In this document: piece after piece, positions 1 to 11,748 of the stretch | Position numbering within the stretch: the first letter of the stretch is position 1 | How the letters are laid out: every line of letters begins with the position of its first letter | Position numbers and translations under genes: made by a program | DNA from: an uncultured Thermoplasmata archaeon | Lineage (GTDB): Archaea > Thermoplasmatota > Thermoplasmata > Halarchaeoplasmatales > Halarchaeoplasmataceae | DNA: 64,000 bases | Assembly: GCA_964462425.1 (NCBI GenBank) | Contig: CAYWYD010000003.1 | Location: forward strand, 5,918 to 69,917 | Direction: 5' to 3' | The notes under the pieces: generated by a model | What the model was told of the DNA's origin: nothing | The model's database searches: none | What the model saw: only the letters and a program-made list of their open reading frames with translations

Positions 1-105
1 GCCTGTTACGAACCGGAGATAAAGATAGACGAGAGGACCCTAGAACTCCTTCATGACGTGGAGGAGGATCTAGCTTATGCACTAAAAGATATCGGGAGGG
101 CATGA
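1..105 (+). CDS. 3' end of an upstream gene (partial, product unknown)
   Basis: Frame 1 reads ...ACYEPEIKIDERTLELLHDVEEDLAYALKDIGRA followed by TGA at 103-105. GC is host-like. No start codon lies inside the window. Confidence 0.3.
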   Translation, partial: ACYEPEIKIDERTLELLHDVEEDLAYALKDIGRA

Positions 106-184
106 GTTTTCCGTTTCTAAAGGTTTTTTGGCATTCCCTCTAAAGAAAATCTACCTATGGCGATCGTTCATGAATATCTATTTT

Positions 185-475
185 TCAGACAGGTTCGACA
201 GTAGTCTCCAATTCCTTTAAATCCACTTCAATTTTGTCAGCAGTTCTTTTATATTTAAAACAGGTATCATCTTCAACATATTTTCTTTTAACTATATCCA
301 CTGACCTCAGCTTTTCTACCGCTCGATATATTGTTTCTCTACGCGTTTTAGGGTGTTGATTTTGATATTTCTCTAATATATCATTGATCGACATCATCTC
401 ATCATCTAAAATATTCAGTATATTTAATCTGGTCTCAGAATCTAGAACTGACGTGATATCAATTATATCCTCCAT
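185..475 (-). CDS. Small winged-helix (wHTH) transcriptional regulator, ArsR/MarR/TrmB-like
   Basis: 96-aa ORF containing ...MSINDILEKYQNQHPKTRRETIYRAVEKLRSVDIVKRK..., which reads as a recognition helix plus wing. It is AT-rich like the adjacent R-M genes. It sits divergent to the 592..1617 ORF, 116 bp away. Confidence 0.5.
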   Translation of the reverse strand: MEDIIDITSVLDSETRLNILNILDDEMMSINDILEKYQNQHPKTRRETIYRAVEKLRSVDIVKRKYVEDDTCFKYKRTADKIEVDLKELETTVEPV

Positions 476-591
476 AGGTTAACACTTCCATAATATCTTT
501 TGAACCGGACAGATACATATCTTCGTAATATATTGTAAAGCTACGTAACAAATACATAAATAAATTTTTTCCTAATCTTTCTGAGATAATT

Positions 592-1617
592 ATGGGAAAA
601 CATGAAAGAAAAGATGTCCAGATCGCAGAGAATATTGTAAAAGATCTAGTCAATGGAAACAAAATAGACTCTCACCAAAAACAACATAAATTGTATGAAT
701 TATCTACCGACCTAGCTGAAAGGATAAAACGTGATTTTCCCGATCTCTCCTATTGTGAAACGGTGGGTAACACATATGGAAACCTCGGCGACCTTAAATT
801 AGATATCCAAGGACGAGATTGTATATATATAGAGCTGAAATTTTTGAGCGGAGGAAGGGGTACGAGAGCAAATATTGGCCAAAATACACTAACCGATTTC
901 GATCTATTTGAATCAAAGGCCAAATCTTGGCAAGAATTTCGAAAGGAAGAAAATCATATTACATGGGTAAAGAGGGAATTGAACAAATTTGAGGATTACC
1001 CAGAAAATATAAAGAATACTAGTGGTAAAAAAACTATAATTTATAAAAAGGCCGGATATCTAAAGGATGTGATAGGGACTAGACGTGGTAAAGAAACCAA
1101 AAAAGTGGCTAAAAATGTATTAAACGATCCAAAATCTTCCCAAAAGAAGAAAAAAGCTGCGGAGATTATAATCAACATCGTAGATAAGGCCGAGAAAGAA
1201 AAAAAGGATTATCTCAACTATCTATCTGAACTGGATCAAAATCATGAAAATATCAAAAAATTCCTCTTCTTGATTTTATCTGGAAGACATACCACTAAAA
1301 AGCTAGATGAAAAATGGGATCTAGATCTATCAACCATCCTAGATAATCTAAAAAACGATTATTACGTTTATTATGGCTATAAGAATAGAAAGAACAAAAC
1401 GGTAGAAGTGGAAGATACCTCAGAGAAGTTGAAGGAACTACTTGATAAAAGAATATTCATTTCATTTAAAAAAGGCCAGACAAACGTTCTTATATCTTTC
1501 AAAAATGACTCCCAAAAGGAGATCCCAATATTACGAGTGGTTTTTCATTGGAAAAATAAATTCCAGGGTATACAGACCCCCTGTCTTAATGTATTCGATA
1601 GCACTTATTTAAAATGA
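592..1617 (+). CDS. Candidate type II restriction endonuclease (PD-(D/E)XK fold), partner of the adjacent methyltransferase
   Basis: Lysine-rich 341-aa ORF. The PD-(D/E)XK signature is present as GDLKLD...(13 aa)...IELK. It is convergent with, and 15 bp from, the N6-adenine MTase. Local GC is about 33%. Confidence 0.45.
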   Translation: MGKHERKDVQIAENIVKDLVNGNKIDSHQKQHKLYELSTDLAERIKRDFPDLSYCETVGNTYGNLGDLKLDIQGRDCIYIELKFLSGGRGTRANIGQNTLTDFDLFESKAKSWQEFRKEENHITWVKRELNKFEDYPENIKNTSGKKTIIYKKAGYLKDVIGTRRGKETKKVAKNVLNDPKSSQKKKKAAEIIINIVDKAEKEKKDYLNYLSELDQNHENIKKFLFLILSGRHTTKKLDEKWDLDLSTILDNLKNDYYVYYGYKNRKNKTVEVEDTSEKLKELLDKRIFISFKKGQTNVLISFKNDSQKEIPILRVVFHWKNKFQGIQTPCLNVFDSTYLK

Positions 1618-1632
1618 ATTTCCACTTGTATT

Positions 1633-2895
1633 TCAAGCCTCTAAATCAAATGGAAACAATCGTTCTAATTCGGTTTTAGAAAGTTGGGTGTTCCCAGTGA
1701 TGCTCTGCACCACTTCGATTTTATCATTCGAATTCAGTTGATCTAAAATATCTTTTAGATCTAGATTTTGCGTGTCTATAGAGCCGTCTTCAAAAAATCT
1801 CGCTTGTTTGCCCTTTGGTGGAAAGATAACATTTACGTGGTTCTCTCCGATAAATTTCATCCCCTCCGGTATTAAAGCGGCTCTAACTTTTCCTGATCCA
1901 GGTTTACCCACTACTCTATTGACCACTATAGCGGGACCCACGCTAGGGTCATCTATATCGACATACTGCGGTTTTTCATGGTTTTCAAGCTCAAGGCCGT
2001 CTTCAGTTATGTTGTGAGACCAAATTATCGGGATATTACCCTCCTTTTGATCAGTTAATTTATCTTTATTTTGATTCCAAACAAGTCTTCCAGTTTTGAC
2101 AGTATACCCCATCTCTCTAAGAGATATTTTATCCTCAAACTTCTTTTCTAGATACTCAGCGTCCTCACTGAATATCATTATCTCATTTTTTCTAAAAACG
2201 TAATCACCATGGTTTTTTCCCTTCTTCAATATCAATAACATAGTAGATTGCTGAGCATTGTGGAACAATTCAGCATCCTTGAGTATGTGTAAATATTCTA
2301 TATTACAATTATTTATTATATATTCCCGGAGTTTGGAAAAATACGCTCCATTATTCATCGAGGGAGGGTTTACAAAGGCCAGGTATCCTCCTTCCTTTAG
2401 TAATTTTATCCCCTGATATATGAATAATCCATATATATTCAATCTCCCGTTTATCACTTCTTCATACTTCTTCTTTATTCCTTCATCCGGGCTAAATTCG
2501 TAATAAGGTGGATTTCCTATTATCAAATCGAATTTATCTCGAACCTCTCTTTTTAGAGTATCTGTTTTTTTTATCTCGGCTTCAGGCACAACTTCTCGAG
2601 ATATATTTACCATCTTTTCGTCTATATCCCACCCGTAGAGCTCCGGGGAGTTAAATCGGTCCTTAACGGACAGGAGAAATTCGCCCGTACCGCATCCAGG
2701 ATCTAGAACTTTCAGACCGTTCTTATTCAAAAACTCATCTGGCAATTGATCGATAAGTTTTCTTCGTATTTTTTTAGGTGTGAAATATTGTCCGAGGTTC
2801 TTCCTTCGGTCTAAATCTTCCTTCTCGATATATTCTAATGTTTCGGACCTAAATTGATCCAAATCCTTTTTAGATTTTTCAGTACGCATTGCCAC
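1633..2895 (-). CDS. Site-specific DNA N6-adenine methyltransferase (gamma class, TaqI/Eco57I-like)
   Basis: AdoMet motif I is VLDPGCGTGEFL and catalytic motif IV is IIGNPPYY, in the gamma-class order. A target-recognition domain is expected in the C-terminal half. The start is probably GTG at 2895 or ATG at 2889. Confidence 0.8.
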   Translation of the reverse strand: MAMRTEKSKKDLDQFRSETLEYIEKEDLDRRKNLGQYFTPKKIRRKLIDQLPDEFLNKNGLKVLDPGCGTGEFLLSVKDRFNSPELYGWDIDEKMVNISREVVPEAEIKKTDTLKREVRDKFDLIIGNPPYYEFSPDEGIKKKYEEVINGRLNIYGLFIYQGIKLLKEGGYLAFVNPPSMNNGAYFSKLREYIINNCNIEYLHILKDAELFHNAQQSTMLLILKKGKNHGDYVFRKNEIMIFSEDAEYLEKKFEDKISLREMGYTVKTGRLVWNQNKDKLTDQKEGNIPIIWSHNITEDGLELENHEKPQYVDIDDPSVGPAIVVNRVVGKPGSGKVRAALIPEGMKFIGENHVNVIFPPKGKQARFFEDGSIDTQNLDLKDILDQLNSNDKIEVVQSITGNTQLSKTELERLFPFDLEA

Positions 2896-3344
2896 CCACC
2901 TTTATTATACTTATTTTATTTAAAGGGCTTTGACCTTCAGCGCCGTTCGTTTTACTCTTTACCGCCTCTGAAATAGTTACTTTAAAACTTTTGACCAAAT
3001 CCCACTGATCTCCGGCGAAAATGAGTTGAACTTTTTTTGTGTTTGCCATGTATATCAAAGCAATCTTGATAGATTAATTACATAGATTTATAGCTTTTGT
3101 AAAAAGGTATCGATCTTAGTACCCATCGATTGCTCAGGAACATCCATAGCCAAGGATCTTTAATCTTCCTGTAGATGTCTGTATGTACTTCTAGACCATA
3201 AGATAATGCTTCAAGTGAAAGTTGGGCTATAACAGATGAACGGTGATTTTCTCCTCATAACTTTAGAATAGCACCAAGAAAAGAGAGCTTTTTCAGCACA
3301 AATTATTTAGAGATTTAAGAGAGATATATACAGGGAAGATAAAA

Positions 3345-3608
3345 ATGGCGACCGGTAGTAGGGTCTCAAGAATATTCTTTATACTTTTAGGTTCAAGCTT
3401 ACTTGTCAGTCTCCTCATCTATGTGATACCAGGATCCATCTTCATAGCGGATTATCTGAAGTTCATAACGCTTATCCTCTTTGCTGGGACCGGAGTGTTG
3501 TCGATCTTCTTCGTGACGGAACAGTTGATACCCGGGTCCGGGACCATGATGTCCGACAAAGAAAAGGCGGATTCTAGACCAGCGGATGAAAAGATTAAGG
3601 TGGGCTAG
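3345..3608 (+). CDS. Small membrane protein (2 predicted TM helices). The same frame continues past TAG 3606-3608 to 3776, encoding a C4 zinc ribbon.
   Basis: The hydrophobic stretches are FFILLGSSLLVSLLIYVIPGSIF and ITLILFAGTGVLSIFFV. The continuation after the in-frame TAG reads ...KKCDECGTELEYKEDYQSYYCPNCRT and contains no ATG, GTG or TTG. Confidence 0.3.
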   Translation: MATGSRVSRIFFILLGSSLLVSLLIYVIPGSIFIADYLKFITLILFAGTGVLSIFFVTEQLIPGSGTMMSDKEKADSRPADEKIKVG

Positions 3609-3787
3609 AAAACTAAAGCGGGAACACGAAAAACTCCGATTTCTACACAGAAGAGCGAAGGTCTCTTTTCTAAATTCAACCCGTTCGCCGGGAAAAAGAA
3701 GTGCGACGAATGCGGAACGGAGTTGGAGTACAAGGAAGATTATCAAAGTTATTACTGCCCCAACTGTCGGACTTAAAAGGAGAATAG

Positions 3788-4015
3788 TCCTCGATTATCA
3801 CGTCGAAAAAGGGTACAGATATAGAGGTACACAAAGCGATAGGATACACGATTACCGACGAGAAGATAGTAGGCAGCATCCACATAGCTCTTGGTGAGAA
3901 CAAGATGTTCGGCGGTGAGAACGACTCGTTTCTACACTGGGACCTGGTCATGCTCGATCCGTCCTTCGAAGTTAACGGGGAAAAGGTCATAGACACCGGT
4001 CAACACCCGGTCTGA
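3788..4015 (+). pseudogene. C-terminal remnant of an M29-family aminopeptidase (aminopeptidase T/AmpS/PepS-like). The N-terminal ~300 codons are absent.
   Basis: Frame 2 reads, directly after a TAG, SSIITSKKGTDIEVHKAIGYTITDEKIVGSIHIALGENKMFGGENDSFLHWDLVMLDPSFEVNGEKVIDTGQHPV*. This matches the conserved M29 C-terminus (...FDEKIGGTVHLALG...SAxHWDxV...VDG...). No start codon is present. Upstream lies the AT-rich R-M island. Confidence 0.45.
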
Positions 4016-4069
4016 GGTCTAGGCCCAACACAAAGTTTTTACCTCCGCCGCTCTCTATATTCAAATACC

Positions 4070-4801
4070 ATGGATCGAGAAGTGCTCAAAGACTATATCC
4101 GCGAGAGGGTGGATTTTTCACAGACCGACCAGAAAAAAGGCGTTCCCATGCCTCCGGTCCAGAAAGAACCTCCCGAAGAAGCGGAACTGGTTGATCTTCC
4201 GGACCCGGAAAGTCTTGACATAAACATCGGACTCAGCGAAGCTATCTCGAACAGGGAGTCGAGGCGCTCTTTTACGAACGATCCTCTGGAACTAACGGAA
4301 CTGTCATTTCTTCTGGGGGCGACCCAAGGCGTGCGTGAGACGACCGACTCAGGACGCGTTTACAGGGTCGTACCTTCGGCGGGAAATCGTCACGCTCTAG
4401 AGACCTACACAGCCGCGTTCGATGTTAATGAGCTAAACGAAGGGATCTACAGGTATCTACCTTTAGACCATAAACTGGTAAAAGTGATAGAATATGAAGA
4501 TATGGAGGACAAAGTCACACGAGCCGCGAGGGGACAATCCTTCGTCGGGAACTGCGCCGCGACCTTCATCTGGACCACTGTACCGTACAGGATGGAGTGG
4601 CGGTACGGAGAAGCCTCCTACAAGGTCATCGCTATAGACGCGGGTCACGTCTGCCAGAACTTGTACATCGCCGCGGAAGCTATAGAGGCGGGAACTTGTG
4701 CTATAGCTGCCTACGATCAGGACCTGATGGATTCCCTGCTCGAAGTCGACGGAAAAGACGAATTCACCATCTATCTGGCGCCGGTGGGTAAGATACCCTG
4801 A
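4070..4801 (+). CDS. Nitroreductase-family protein (SagB-type dehydrogenase domain)
   Basis: RESRRSF...PSAGNRHALETY...GIYRY...VIAIDAGHVCQNLYIAAEAIEAGTCAI is typical of the NADH oxidase/nitroreductase fold of SagB/ThcOx-like proteins. Confidence 0.6.
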   Translation: MDREVLKDYIRERVDFSQTDQKKGVPMPPVQKEPPEEAELVDLPDPESLDINIGLSEAISNRESRRSFTNDPLELTELSFLLGATQGVRETTDSGRVYRVVPSAGNRHALETYTAAFDVNELNEGIYRYLPLDHKLVKVIEYEDMEDKVTRAARGQSFVGNCAATFIWTTVPYRMEWRYGEASYKVIAIDAGHVCQNLYIAAEAIEAGTCAIAAYDQDLMDSLLEVDGKDEFTIYLAPVGKIP

Positions 4802-4961
4802 TCCTCACCAGGGAAAGAGTTAATTATCTCGAATCACATAACTTTTAATGGGAGTGGTCAGAGGATAGATAGGTCGTACCTTACACGTTAAAGTGTAGAA
4901 CGGCCTCCTTGTGAATCTTTCGGGGCATCTATTTCTATATTCTGGCCTTCTGGTGAGATAT

Positions 4962-5804
4962 ATGGAGTTGAAAGGTAAAACATGTATGGTCACCGGTGCT
5001 AATTCCGGGATCGGTAATCGCACTGCTGAAAGGTTCGCGGACAGAGGGGCTCAAGTGGTGATGGTCTGTAGAAACGATGAACGGTGCGAGAAGGCCAGAA
5101 AGGAGATCGTCCAAAGAACGCAAAACGGGGATGTACAACTCCTACTCTGCGATCTATCGTCGATGCGCTCCGTTAGACTGGCTGTCAAAACGTTCAAAGA
5201 GAAGTTCAGCAGTTTACACGTGCTCGTGAACAACGCAGGCATGATCTCTTCAGAGAGGAAGATCACGGACGAAGATTACGAAAAAACGTTCGCGACCAAC
5301 TATCTCGGCCACTTCCTCCTCACCTATCTTTTGATCCCCGCCATGAAAGACGCTAAAGCCGAGATAATCAACGTTACCTCCGCAGCTCATAAAAACGCGA
5401 ACCTCGATTTTAACGACCTTCAGCTAAAGGAGCCTTCCAACTTCGGCAGTTGGAGGGCCTATGCCAACTCAAAATTGGCACAGGTGATGTTCACTTATAC
5501 CCTGTCCAAAAAACTGAAGAGATATCAGATATCGGTGAACAGCTTTCATCCTGGGGTCGTGAACTCTCAATTCGGGAACGGGACTCTTTTGACAAAGATC
5601 TTCTACACGTTGTTTTTCTTTTTGATGAGAGACCCCGACGATTCCGCGGAAGATATCGTTAACATCATCACTGATCCTAAATTTGAAGGCGTGACCGGGA
5701 AGTATTTCTCCAAGAGAAAGATAAAAGAGCCCTCTAAAGACGCTCACGATTTAAAGGTGCGTAGGAAGCTTTGGAAAGAGAGTAAGAGGTTGGTAGGAGT
5801 GTAG
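4962..5804 (+). CDS. Short-chain dehydrogenase/reductase (SDR, retinol-dehydrogenase-like)
   Basis: The Rossmann motif is GKTCMVTGANSGIG, NNAG is present, and the catalytic motif is YANSK (YxxxK). The start was moved to the in-frame ATG at 4962 (MELKGK...). The track ORF begins at 4911. Confidence 0.8.
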   Translation: MELKGKTCMVTGANSGIGNRTAERFADRGAQVVMVCRNDERCEKARKEIVQRTQNGDVQLLLCDLSSMRSVRLAVKTFKEKFSSLHVLVNNAGMISSERKITDEDYEKTFATNYLGHFLLTYLLIPAMKDAKAEIINVTSAAHKNANLDFNDLQLKEPSNFGSWRAYANSKLAQVMFTYTLSKKLKRYQISVNSFHPGVVNSQFGNGTLLTKIFYTLFFFLMRDPDDSAEDIVNIITDPKFEGVTGKYFSKRKIKEPSKDAHDLKVRRKLWKESKRLVGV

Positions 5805-5823
5805 AAGGCTGTCACCTTCAACT

Positions 5824-6927
5824 CTAGTCCTCGAATTCATAGAGCAGATCCTTAGCTAGGGAATTTTCGAAATAATTGAAATAAACGAACGTGATGAAGA
5901 ATGTATTAACGAGAAAACCCGCGAAGTAGAAAAGGAACGAATATAACAATAATTCAGGATCAAAAGTCCTCACGGCTAGTCTCAGAAAAAGCAGGATCGT
6001 CCCGAGGGTCAGGATCAAGCCCAACAACCTCGACCGAGCGCCCTCGAAGAGGTAGAAATCCGCAGCGGGTCCCGGGATCTTCACTCCAAGTCTCCAGAAT
6101 ATGAAAAGAGGGATCACTATAACCGGAATAAAGTACGAAGCGGCGGAAGCTAAAGCAAAAAGTTCACTCAATGATCTTTCAGCGAGGAGCAGAGGATTCA
6201 AACTTATGTATATCGCGATAACCACCGCTAGTATGGACTCTAAAAAGAAGGCCCTCCAGAAATTTTTCCGAGGAAATCTGTCTTTAAAGGCTTTTTTCTC
6301 GATCGTTATCTTTCCGGTATCCAATGCTTTAGGGATATGGAAGATCCAACTCAGTAAATCATGATAAGCCGTTTTCAGAAACTCCTCATCATCCTCCCTC
6401 GTTCCGGTCGTTCTTCTTATATCCTTGAAGATGTGGGGGAAGTACTTCCTCTGGAAGAGCACTATCACGCTGACGAGCCCGAAGCTTTGAAGAAGTAGAA
6501 AAAAGAATCCGATCAGATAAGAAAATAAGAAGAGGAAAAAGATCATGACGGGCATCAAAAACGAACCGACGCTCGGGATGTAATCCCGGAATATAGGGAG
6601 TAGAAAGGGGCTGTAGAGGGAGTAACCAACCACTAAAGTGAGAACCGTCAAGAAGAAAGAGATACCCAGCAAAGCCTTCAACACGTCTTTAGTACTTATG
6701 ATGCCGTATTTCCCGTAAAATCGCAGCGAGAAAACCCCGGTCACTAAAAATATCGTAACTAGGCCGTTCAAGATAGGGTTGACTAGATTGAATATATCCC
6801 CGTCCCAGTTAGTTATCAAGATGTATATGATCCAAACAACAAATATCAGGCCAAGACCGGATAACAGTTTACGGATTCTATCGTCGTGTTTTCTTTGCTC
6901 TTTGGTTGACCGTGATCCCTCACCCAT
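5824..6927 (-). CDS. Polytopic membrane protein, function unknown
   Basis: 367 aa with at least 8 hydrophobic segments and no recognisable motif. Confidence 0.4.
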   Translation of the reverse strand: MGEGSRSTKEQRKHDDRIRKLLSGLGLIFVVWIIYILITNWDGDIFNLVNPILNGLVTIFLVTGVFSLRFYGKYGIISTKDVLKALLGISFFLTVLTLVVGYSLYSPFLLPIFRDYIPSVGSFLMPVMIFFLFLFSYLIGFFFLLLQSFGLVSVIVLFQRKYFPHIFKDIRRTTGTREDDEEFLKTAYHDLLSWIFHIPKALDTGKITIEKKAFKDRFPRKNFWRAFFLESILAVVIAIYISLNPLLLAERSLSELFALASAASYFIPVIVIPLFIFWRLGVKIPGPAADFYLFEGARSRLLGLILTLGTILLFLRLAVRTFDPELLLYSFLFYFAGFLVNTFFITFVYFNYFENSLAKDLLYEFED

Positions 6928-9668: not shown

Positions 9669-10619
9669 ATGTCATCGAAGAGTTTGAATATCAGAAAATT
9701 TGAAGAGACGGATTATCAGGAGATAGTGAGATTACAAAATGTGGTGTTTCCATGGATAAATTTGAGTGTCGAATCTTTAAAACACAGGGATGAAAATCGT
9801 GCTGAAAGATGTAAACATCAAAAGTATATAGCCGAACTGGACAGCGAAGTTATCGGTTACACCAGCTACTCGCAGTCCGAAGTGTCCTACGAACCCGGGA
9901 AGTTCAACATCAACGGAGTCATACATCCGGATCATCAGGGTGAAGGTTACGGCGCCGAGTTCTACCGATATCTCATGGACGAGCTGGAAGAACACGATCC
10001 TGAGGAATTGTGGTCTCACACGAAGGAGGGCAAAGAAAGAGCGATCAGATTCCTCGAAGATAGAGGCTTTCAGGAGATGAAGAGAGTTTGGGAGCTGGAA
10101 TTGGATGTAAATGAATTCGATGAAGGGTCCGCCCTTGAAAGAAACCTAGATGAGGAGGGTATCTCTCTGACCACGTTGGATGAGATAGGGACCAGCGAAG
10201 AGAATAAGAGAAAGTTCTACGAGGTGTTCGATAAAATAGCAGAGGACATCCCAGGGTCCGATCAATATACTGGCTTAGATTATGAGCAGTTCAAAAAGAT
10301 GATACTCGGTCGTCCTATCTTCTCTCCTGAATGCAGTGTTATAGCGGTGAAAGATAACAGGTTCATCGGTATGCTCACCCAATACTGGAACAAGGAAGAG
10401 AACGCTATCTATACCGGTCTCGGAGGGGTAAAGCGAGAACATAGGAGGAAAGGTATAGCTACGGCGATGATAGGAAAGGCCGTCGAGATAGCGGAAGAGA
10501 AAGGGGTCCCCAAGATAAAGACCGAAAGCGATAATGAGACCATGCTCCACATAATCGAGAACCTAGGGTTCGAGAAGAAACCGGGCATGATAGACTACAA
10601 GAAGACGGTTGAGAATTAA
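9669..10619 (+). CDS. Tandem GNAT-domain N-acetyltransferase
   Basis: There are two acetyl-CoA motif-A-like segments: HQGEGYGAEFYRYL and HRRKGIATAMIGKAVEIAEEKG. Confidence 0.7.
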   Translation: MSSKSLNIRKFEETDYQEIVRLQNVVFPWINLSVESLKHRDENRAERCKHQKYIAELDSEVIGYTSYSQSEVSYEPGKFNINGVIHPDHQGEGYGAEFYRYLMDELEEHDPEELWSHTKEGKERAIRFLEDRGFQEMKRVWELELDVNEFDEGSALERNLDEEGISLTTLDEIGTSEENKRKFYEVFDKIAEDIPGSDQYTGLDYEQFKKMILGRPIFSPECSVIAVKDNRFIGMLTQYWNKEENAIYTGLGGVKREHRRKGIATAMIGKAVEIAEEKGVPKIKTESDNETMLHIIENLGFEKKPGMIDYKKTVEN

Positions 10620-10683
10620 GGTCTCTTGGGATCAAAACGTAGGAGCAGTAAAGAAATCAAAAAATTCAGTTTTATCTTCCCGA

Positions 10684-11748
10684 TCACATCCCAGCCTTCT
10701 TCAACCTTGTCCGGACATTAGTCACTTTTCTATCGGATAGATTTGAGTCTTTCAATTTTTCTACATAGCTCGAGAAAAAACGTTCGTCCCTGGATTCCAA
10801 GACCTCGCCTATCCGGTCCCAGTACAGCTTGGAGATCCTCTGTGGAGCCTCTTTTACAAACTTGCCGAAGTATTCGGGGTACGTTTCGTAATTCACTGAA
10901 GAACTCTTTTTCCTGTTCAGCAAATCGTTGTATCTCGCCATGTATTTTTCCACGTTCTCTAACACGTGATGATAGCCCGTGAGAGCGTACTGATCCAAGA
11001 CTCTAGGACAGATGAGAACATACCTGAAATCCCAGTCGCTGTAAAGGCTCTTTTCGTGGTTGGTCAAAAGGAAGGCGGACTCTAGTCCTTTCACGACCTG
11101 ATTTAATCGATTTTTCCCATCGCCTTCGGCGCTCGTATCAGTTTCGAGTTTTGACTCAAAGAAAACGAAGACCTTTTTCTCAGGTATGATCAGTACAGCG
11201 TCGTACCGGACTTTACTGTATTTATCTGATATATCCAAAAAAGAAACGTTCCTTCTGCTCTTTTCTTCACCGCAGTGGACCGCTCCACAGGCCACTTCGA
11301 ATTCGAACAGTAGGATCTTTTTTGTCTTCTGAACTTGTCTCTTTTTCAAACCTAAATTCCTTCTGATCTTCGGTCGATCCCACAGAGCTCCTACCTTTTC
11401 CTCCACATATTTATCTTCAGCATCCTTGCCCTCGGAAAAACTTCGAAAAAAAGACTCCGACCACGAAGACCTTTTTGTGTTCTCTCTCGGCCGCTCCGGT
11501 AAAGAAGAGACCTGGCTCCAACTGTCTAGATTACCCAGCATGAAAAGCGTCAGGGCGGTCTCAGAATTGGGATTGAAGAAGCTGTCGGGATGTGAAGCGT
11601 CTTTTACCAATGCAGACTTTCTCTTTTCGGTTATCCCATACCAGAGGTTCCAATCCTCTTTTACAGAAGGTCGGTTCAGCAGAAGTTCCACCTGACCTTT
11701 TAAATGATTATCCATCTTCACCAACAAAGGACGACCCGTATAAAACAT
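10684..11748 (-). CDS. Hypothetical protein with a PD-(D/E)XK-like nuclease core (family unknown)
   Basis: FEFEVACG...YDAVLIIPEKKVFVFFESKLE gives E...D...ExK in nuclease-like spacing. No other motif was recognised. Confidence 0.3.
   Translation of the reverse strand: MFYTGRPLLVKMDNHLKGQVELLLNRPSVKEDWNLWYGITEKRKSALVKDASHPDSFFNPNSETALTLFMLGNLDSWSQVSSLPERPRENTKRSSWSESFFRSFSEGKDAEDKYVEEKVGALWDRPKIRRNLGLKKRQVQKTKKILLFEFEVACGAVHCGEEKSRRNVSFLDISDKYSKVRYDAVLIIPEKKVFVFFESKLETDTSAEGDGKNRLNQVVKGLESAFLLTNHEKSLYSDWDFRYVLICPRVLDQYALTGYHHVLENVEKYMARYNDLLNRKKSSSVNYETYPEYFGKFVKEAPQRISKLYWDRIGEVLESRDERFFSSYVEKLKDSNLSDRKVTNVRTRLKKAGM

Follow-up and report, generated by a model that had tools for sequence, protein, structure and literature searches.

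A probable horizontally acquired Type II restriction-modification module in an uncultured Thermoplasmata archaeon, and its relatives in bacteria and archaea

A 64,000-nucleotide (nt) stretch of DNA from an uncultured Thermoplasmata archaeon (Halarchaeoplasmatales; GenBank assembly GCA_964462425.1, contig CAYWYD010000003.1, positions 5,918 to 69,917), referred to here as "the window," carries near its left end an AT-rich block of three genes that is likely to be a horizontally acquired and apparently intact Type II restriction-modification (R-M) module. Two of the genes form a convergent pair: a candidate restriction endonuclease of 341 amino acids (aa), here called R (592-1617, + strand), and a gamma-class N6-adenine DNA methyltransferase, METHYLTRANSFERASE (M; 1633-2895, - strand), the stop codons of which are 15 nt apart (gap 1618-1632, read directly). 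In archaeal relatives the 3' ends of the two genes overlap by 50-97 nt. The third gene, encoding a 96-aa winged helix-turn-helix (wHTH) protein that is a candidate regulator (185-475, - strand), is divergent from R, with 116 nt between them. The original prediction for this DNA, made from the sequence alone, had proposed just such a layout, a nuclease and a methyltransferase facing each other with a small regulator gene transcribed away from the nuclease, and the coordinates of the open reading frames (ORFs) bear it out.

The block stands out most plainly by its composition. Its GC content is 34.9% at 110-3340, against 46.2% at 3341-64000; among all 3231-bp sliding windows (mean 45.9%, standard deviation 2.2%) the minimum, 34.9%, falls at position 101, about five standard deviations under the mean, so that the proposed AT-rich block is indeed the lowest 3.2-kb stretch in the window. 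The flanking GC of "48-50%" proposed at the same time fits the adjacent 4-5 kb, but is slightly high for the window as a whole. The island is also where tetranucleotide usage departs furthest from that of the remaining sequence (distance 0.41, against 0.15-0.27), and both measures, run along the window, clearly separate it from its flanks. GC at third codon positions (GC3) is 0.29 in the wHTH gene, 0.32 in R and 0.36 in M, and 0.46-0.63 in all ORFs of at least 250 aa elsewhere in the window. Because GC3 is low in all three genes, and because the small ORFs immediately to the right (3345-3608, 3621-3776 and 3788-4015) are host-like in composition, the island is real, with limits at about 106-3344.

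The same difference in composition from the host, consistent across GC, GC3 and tetranucleotide usage, supports the view that the block is horizontally acquired DNA in an archaeal chromosome, as had been suspected; equivalogs of aCPSF1 and CDC48 further along the window mark the host as archaeal. An argument added earlier, from a neighboring "truncated gene," is weak: the host GAF-domain gene on the left, of which the last 105 nt lie in the window (stop at 105), is cut by the window edge only, and is complete in an overlapping contig (L001). The left junction (106-184) is non-coding, running from the stop of the GAF gene to the 3' end of the wHTH gene, and GC falls there from 0.49 (1-105) to 0.33. 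The right edge (3059-3344) is likewise non-coding and AT-rich (GC 0.34), with stops in all six frames. The block shows no mobility signature of the kind expected of a genomic island (integrase or transposase, tRNA target, flanking direct repeats): searches found no integrase or transposase ORF within 1-6000, no tRNA across the window, no repeats flanking the island, and no Rfam family accompanying it.

M can be read as 420 aa from a GTG at 2895 or as 418 aa from an ATG at 2889, and the database copy of the protein (P0128) has 418. Its identification as a gamma-class N6-adenine methyltransferase, already part of the original prediction, is confirmed by Pfam matches to Eco57I (4.6e-22) and N6_Mtase (3.1e-21), by a PADLOC match to the Type II methyltransferase models MTase_II (2.6e-51), by the solved structures nearest to it in sequence (CamA, M.BseCI and M.TaqI in the PDB, 1e-15 to 1e-12), and by three motifs that can be read directly from the - strand: X, GQYFTP (2776-2793, aa 35-40); I, DPGCGTG (2683-2703, aa 65-71); and IV, NPPY (2503-2514, aa 128-131). 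The motif order X, I, IV, with about 200 residues C-terminal of the catalytic domain, is the gamma-class architecture, and the catalytic motifs are those expected of the methyltransferase gene of a Type II R-M system. M resembles M.TaqI, M.BseCI and CamA in this order, in the C-terminal target-recognition region that follows it, and, for M.TaqI, in size (420 and 421 aa), but sequence similarity to them covers only residues ~57-242 of the query, the catalytic domain. The C-terminal region matched no characterized protein, so that a target sequence for M is not transferable from known enzymes. Upstream of the ATG, the promoter region has TTTAAATA at 33-40 nt and GGTGG at 6-10 nt; it is held within a doubtful ORF of 56-59 aa (2879-3058, - strand) that overlaps the M start, matches no family of Pfam, NCBIfam or PADLOC, and cannot yet be counted as a gene. 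A 59-aa ORF of a related locus, L005 (8194-8373; ribbon-helix-helix-like sequence, no Pfam match), is similarly placed upstream of M and overlaps its start.

R is a different case, recognizable by its predicted structure. It has no match among Pfam, NCBIfam or PADLOC models, the Pfam models of MspI, HinP1I and HhaI included, nor among PDB sequences with either phmmer or a 46-sequence family profile (MspI, HinP1I and HhaI are absent at E<=10). A database of 5.8 billion proteins yields 145 homologues, nearly all unnamed; tblastn against plasmid and phage collections gave no match, and Foldseek against viral structures returned uncharacterized proteins only. The AlphaFold model of R (predicted local distance difference test score, pLDDT, 93) has as its closest structures the restriction enzymes MspI and HinP1I, and contains the alpha-beta-beta-beta-alpha-beta core of the PD-(D/E)XK superfamily with the D...(D/E)xK residues on strands beta2 and beta3: an N-terminal helix (residues 3-20), D67 just before beta2 (68-72), and E81-x-K83 on beta3 (78-85). 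The catalytic core D67-x13-E81-x-K83 thus lies at 790-840 (+ strand), as placed by homologue conservation and the secondary structure of the model. E81 and K83 are invariant in 117/117 full-length homologues, which, with a modeled fold nearest to MspI and HinP1I, upholds the suggestion that the 341-aa ORF is a PD-(D/E)XK nuclease. Position 67 (790-792) is Asp in 98 of the 117, the window copy among them. The N-terminal helix (604-630, + strand) carries E5, R6 and E13, which are invariant in 116, the remaining sequence being gapped there; either E5 or E13 may supply the acidic residue that the helix contributes to the active site.

Beyond this core the model shows a helical insert of about 150 residues (99-256) and then a second beta-sheet (257-336). 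The strongest motif of the family, VFHWKNKFQGIQTPCLNVFD (HWKNKFQGIxTPCLN; 1540-1599, + strand), is in this C-terminal sheet, and its residues W320, K321, N322, G326, T329 and P330 are invariant, making it a candidate DNA-recognition element. In MspI, HinP1I and HhaI the first sheet catalyzes and the second reads bases, and each enzyme works as a monomer, cutting first one strand and then the other (PMC7026639). R shares the two-sheet fold, catalytic plus recognition, with MspI and HinP1I, Type IIP enzymes and its nearest structural neighbors. Unlike the three enzymes, it is about 90 residues longer, with its all-helical insert of some 150 residues between the sheets, and it has no detectable sequence similarity to MspI (C^CGG), HinP1I (G^CGC) or HhaI. 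These enzymes also pair with 5-methylcytosine methyltransferases and cut GC-only sites, whereas the R family occurs mostly with an N6-adenine methyltransferase. R is treated here as representing a putative, uncharacterized family within a known kind of endonuclease.

The pairing of R with M is conserved well outside this archaeon. A scan for R homologues, taking one genome per species, gave 48 loci, the host genome not being among the species representatives. In 32 of these species-level loci an orthologue of M (phmmer 1e-130 to 1e-170) converges on the R homologue, the two genes abutting or overlapping. The paired loci come from Dehalococcoidia (Chloroflexota), about 20 Patescibacteria, Nitrososphaeria, Gammaproteobacteria, Zixibacteria, Aminicenantes and Elusimicrobia, and their neighborhoods are otherwise unrelated to each other: the pairing has been kept in unrelated genomes, as expected for the adjacent endonuclease of a Type II system. 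In Asgard loci (L010/L024 and L026) the R homologue is instead accompanied by a co-directional 741-aa beta-class N6_N4 methyltransferase, and in one archaeal metagenome-assembled genome (MAG; L061) by a C5-cytosine methyltransferase (motifs PPCQGFS, ENV and QLGNAVP), convergent and about 0.9 kb away, so that the family is found with three methyltransferase classes. In four loci, controller (C) proteins of the XRE type (~73 aa) are encoded in the same direction as R and end just ahead of its start (L056 5764-5985, L035 1-264, L031 5693-5980 and L028 181-414). Because the pairing is conserved, the methyltransferase class is exchanged and C proteins are present, the family can be regarded as a real Type II R-M module, and the pairing that had been proposed from the window copy turns out to hold across phyla. 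In three of the four loci with C proteins (L035, L031 and L028), the C protein occurs alongside a methyltransferase with an N-terminal LexA-type (S24) fusion, a combination taken up below.

How might the module work? M, as a putative monomeric enzyme of the gamma, TaqI type, would methylate N6 of adenine in a short recognition site. R would be a Mg2+-dependent PD-(D/E)XK endonuclease, with D67, E81 and K83 on its catalytic sheet and E5 and E13 on the helix; by analogy with MspI and HinP1I, an analogy that comes from the resemblance in fold, it probably acts on an unmethylated site as a bound monomer, cleaving it strand by strand. Since the family uses both adenine and cytosine methyltransferases, the site, if specificity is shared within the family, should contain both A/T and C/G pairs. 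Palindrome counts (observed over expected, Markov model) in the pooled bacterial loci of the relatives show GATC, GTAC, CTAG and TGCA avoided non-specifically. The wHTH protein would have arrived with the same foreign DNA, and is the best candidate for a regulator acting on the 116-bp promoter region that its gene shares with R.

That the 96-aa protein is a winged-helix protein seems secure. Its match to the Pfam FUR DNA-binding domain (4.3e-06) is above the cut-off (27.3 bits against 23.1), and 25 of the 33 relatives examined also match FUR, which together make the assignment sound; weaker matches are to HTH_20/ArsR, TrmB, MsvR and the PADLOC Csa3 wHTH model (2e-6), and 16 of the 33 relatives match HTH_20. 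A full HMMER scan found 52 distant relatives, stand-alone proteins of about 95 aa, where a word-index search had returned nothing but the protein itself. The single-sequence AlphaFold model (pLDDT 62, all-helical) is unusable, and the assignment is made from the profile matches. Its gene and R are divided by a region (476-591) with a GC content of 26.7% and TATA-like elements for both: ATAAATAAATTTTTT at 556-570, about 25-35 nt before the R ATG, and TTTACAATATATTA at about 524-537 (- strand) for the wHTH gene.

Does this protein control the module? It is like the C proteins C.PvuII, C.AhdI and C.Esp1396I in being a small DNA-binding protein encoded next to R. It is unlike them in having a winged helix of the FUR/ArsR kind and not an XRE helix-turn-helix (no HTH_3/XRE model of Pfam, NCBIfam or PADLOC matches it), and in a gene that is divergent from R and not co-transcribed with it, and that lacks any significant C-box-like repeat. 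With XRE fold, co-orientation with C-boxes and co-inheritance with the module all lacking, it should not be called a C protein; it might still act like one. A regulatory role can be put forward tentatively, as not quite an even prospect. In five other loci small DNA-binding proteins stand upstream of R, four of them XRE proteins and the fifth a wHTH protein (in L005). The L005 protein (5721-6008; 95 aa) weakly matches PadR, HxlR and TrmB, its gene overlaps the start of R, and it is unrelated: no relatedness is detectable between the 96-aa protein of the window and either the L005 protein or the LexA DNA-binding domain of the methyltransferase fusions.

Several observations weigh against the picture of an intact Type II module under its own regulator. 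The family profile of the 96-aa protein finds no member in the 62 related loci. A direct repeat in the intergenic region, ACA(G/A)ATACATA (at 509 and 548), was considered as an operator and rejected, since repeats of equal quality occur in 8.5% of dinucleotide shuffles. In R, position 67 is Asn in 19 of the 117 homologues, two of which (in L005 and L007) are adjacent to a methyltransferase: either the position tolerates Asn, or the role of first metal ligand falls to E5 or E13, which are acidic as well. In 14 species of Halorubrum and other Halobacteriales an intact R homologue has no methyltransferase next to it. Lastly, palindromic 4- and 6-mers that contain A are not avoided in the window, a result compatible with recent acquisition and equally with an inactive system.

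The first two of these bear on the alternative that survives best, in which R and M form a genuine R-M pair beside which the wHTH gene is a mere passenger or otherwise unrelated, control being exerted through promoter strengths and convergent transcription, as it apparently is in most relatives. Besides the absence of wHTH relatives near other members of the R-M family and the insignificance of the sole repeat in 476-591, it is favored by the lack of a small DNA-binding gene beside R in most loci, and by the stand-alone nature of the protein's 52 distant relatives. Against this, the GC3 of the wHTH gene (0.29) implies that it came with R and M or from a similar donor, its divergence from R spans 116 bp only, and five other loci have small DNA-binding proteins in the corresponding slot upstream of R. 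The chances of this alternative seem about even, and the earlier proposal of a wHTH regulator is upheld for the winged helix itself, while the controller role finds no support in conservation (0 of 62 loci).

A second alternative is that the module is decaying, M being left as an orphan methyltransferase beside an R that is inactive or unexpressed. The absence of avoidance of any A-containing palindrome in the window would fit this, as would the fact that the host is known from a metagenome assembly only. Both ORFs are, however, full length relative to their homologues (100% coverage), the window copy of R retains all the invariant residues of the family, and the unameliorated composition of the block points to recent arrival rather than long decay; this alternative appears improbable.

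More improbable again is the idea that R is a methyltransferase-associated PD-(D/E)XK nuclease with some other role (modification-dependent restriction, repair, nicking), the Halorubrum copies reflecting a primary function independent of methyltransferases: it would account for these orphans, for the Asn at position 67 in 16% of members and for the failure of all known restriction-endonuclease models to match R, yet it sits badly with the Type II hallmarks of the family (tight convergent pairing in 32 of 48 loci, exchange of methyltransferase classes, C proteins upstream) and with nearest folds that are Type IIP enzymes, and a modification-dependent enzyme would not be expected beside a methyltransferase that makes its own substrate.

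The Halorubrum homologues are nonetheless an unexpected finding in themselves: a solitary homologue of a Type II endonuclease kept across a genus. The orphan proteins (loci L008, L009, L014-L023, L025, L048, L057 and L058, from Halorubrum and a Halobacteriales MAG) are 36-39% identical, have intact catalytic residues, occur in at least 13 Halorubrum species, and occupy a single conserved position adjoining the lipoyl synthase gene. In L057, a weakly beta-methyltransferase-like ORF lies about 0.7 kb upstream of the R homologue. Protection against these homologues by the CTAG orphan methyltransferase was considered and not adopted, because that enzyme is reported from only about 37.5% of Halorubrum genomes (Fullmer et al., PMC6471742). 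Against a Markov expectation, the pooled Halorubrum loci (162 kb) show a strong deficit of CTCGAG (21 observed, 160 expected) and deficits of AGCGCT (13 and 82) and CTAG (40 and 109) as well, none of them linked to the R homologue.

Another unusual feature of the family is found in its bacterial methyltransferases. A complete N-terminal LexA (LexA_DNA_bind winged helix plus Peptidase_S24) is present on 64 of the 120 best M homologues, giving proteins of about 615 aa, mostly from Patescibacteria; M itself, in the window, has no such fusion. The fused methyltransferases (loci L027-L055, for example L030, L033 and L038; proteins P0155, P0165 and others) are orthologues of M, 56-62% identical, and when they are aligned to E. 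coli LexA the Ala-Gly (AAG) cleavage site proves to be preserved, along with the catalytic Ser and Lys. One of them is entered at NCBI as "transcriptional repressor LexA." Their promoters (160 nt upstream, L027-L055) have a conserved TTGACA...TATAAT with, in 13 of 19 loci, a direct repeat in the spacer, TTTCGNT-N4-TTTCGNT, the half-sites of which co-vary between loci (GGT/GGT, GCT/GCT, GAT/GAT, GGG/GGG, TAT/TAT). All 19 loci have a DnaA-box-like TTATCCACA adjoining the -35 element, often accompanied by another copy, inverted, close to the start codon, and no dnaA gene was found near the LexA-methyltransferase loci. These signals travel with the module, since the genes around it change from locus to locus.

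Some methyltransferases are known to have a regulatory DNA-binding domain fused at the N terminus, with autoregulation of the M.SsoII, M.EcoRII and M.MspI type. The patescibacterial orthologues of M are like these in combining an N-terminal DNA-binding domain with a conserved promoter repeat, and unlike the M.SsoII type in that the fused part is a complete LexA, wHTH domain plus S24 autoprotease with its cleavage site. A full-text literature search found no description of LexA-methyltransferase fusions. A plausible hypothesis has the fusion repressing the promoter from which it is expressed, with SOS-induced autocleavage raising methyltransferase expression when the chromosome is cut. About 1 kb from one LexA-methyltransferase gene, in L034, lies another protein (9747-11108, - strand; 453 aa) with an N-terminal LexA/S24-like segment (VGVIAAGSPIEAIE...LRVQGDSM), which suggests that in these genomes S24 domains are fused to other enzymes as well.

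To the right of the island in the window, the first ORFs are a hydrophobic one of 87 aa (3345-3608) and one of about 50 aa with a zinc ribbon (CDEC...CPNC; ~3621-3776), both of host composition. These two stand between the island and a stretch at 3788-4015 (+ strand) that may be all that is left of an M29 aminopeptidase gene, its C-terminal ~75 aa. The stretch lies about 450 bp beyond the island, is host-like in composition (GC3 0.63), and matches profile positions 333-392 of 406 in Pfam Peptidase_M29 at E=1.5e-3, under the gathering score. It is at best an indirect sign of a rearrangement.

For the archaeon itself the result is an ordinary one: a probable Type II R-M cassette, recently acquired by an archaeal genome, less interesting in the window copy than in the leads it gives to the family. 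It is an entry point to an endonuclease family of about 145 members in at least 10 phyla of bacteria and archaea, with no Pfam, NCBIfam or PADLOC model and no sequence-related solved structure. The family probably has MspI/HinP1I-like mechanics, and finding in it a new specificity or a new monomeric enzyme would have practical value. It also shows an unusual range of regulatory solutions. A more ambitious reading, doubtful at present, is that the family keeps a fixed R-M core and swaps its regulator by lineage: an XRE C protein in some bacteria, a LexA-methyltransferase in Patescibacteria, and a stand-alone wHTH protein in archaea (the window and L005). The LexA fusion would then link expression of the methyltransferase with the SOS response, a feedback that counters self-restriction, the 96-aa protein would be a non-XRE, archaeal-type controller acting on the 116-bp promoter, and R would found a new MspI/HinP1I-like clade reading a site with both A/T and C/G pairs. 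Independently of that scheme, the LexA-methyltransferase fusions, if functional, would couple the control of restriction and modification directly to the DNA-damage response.

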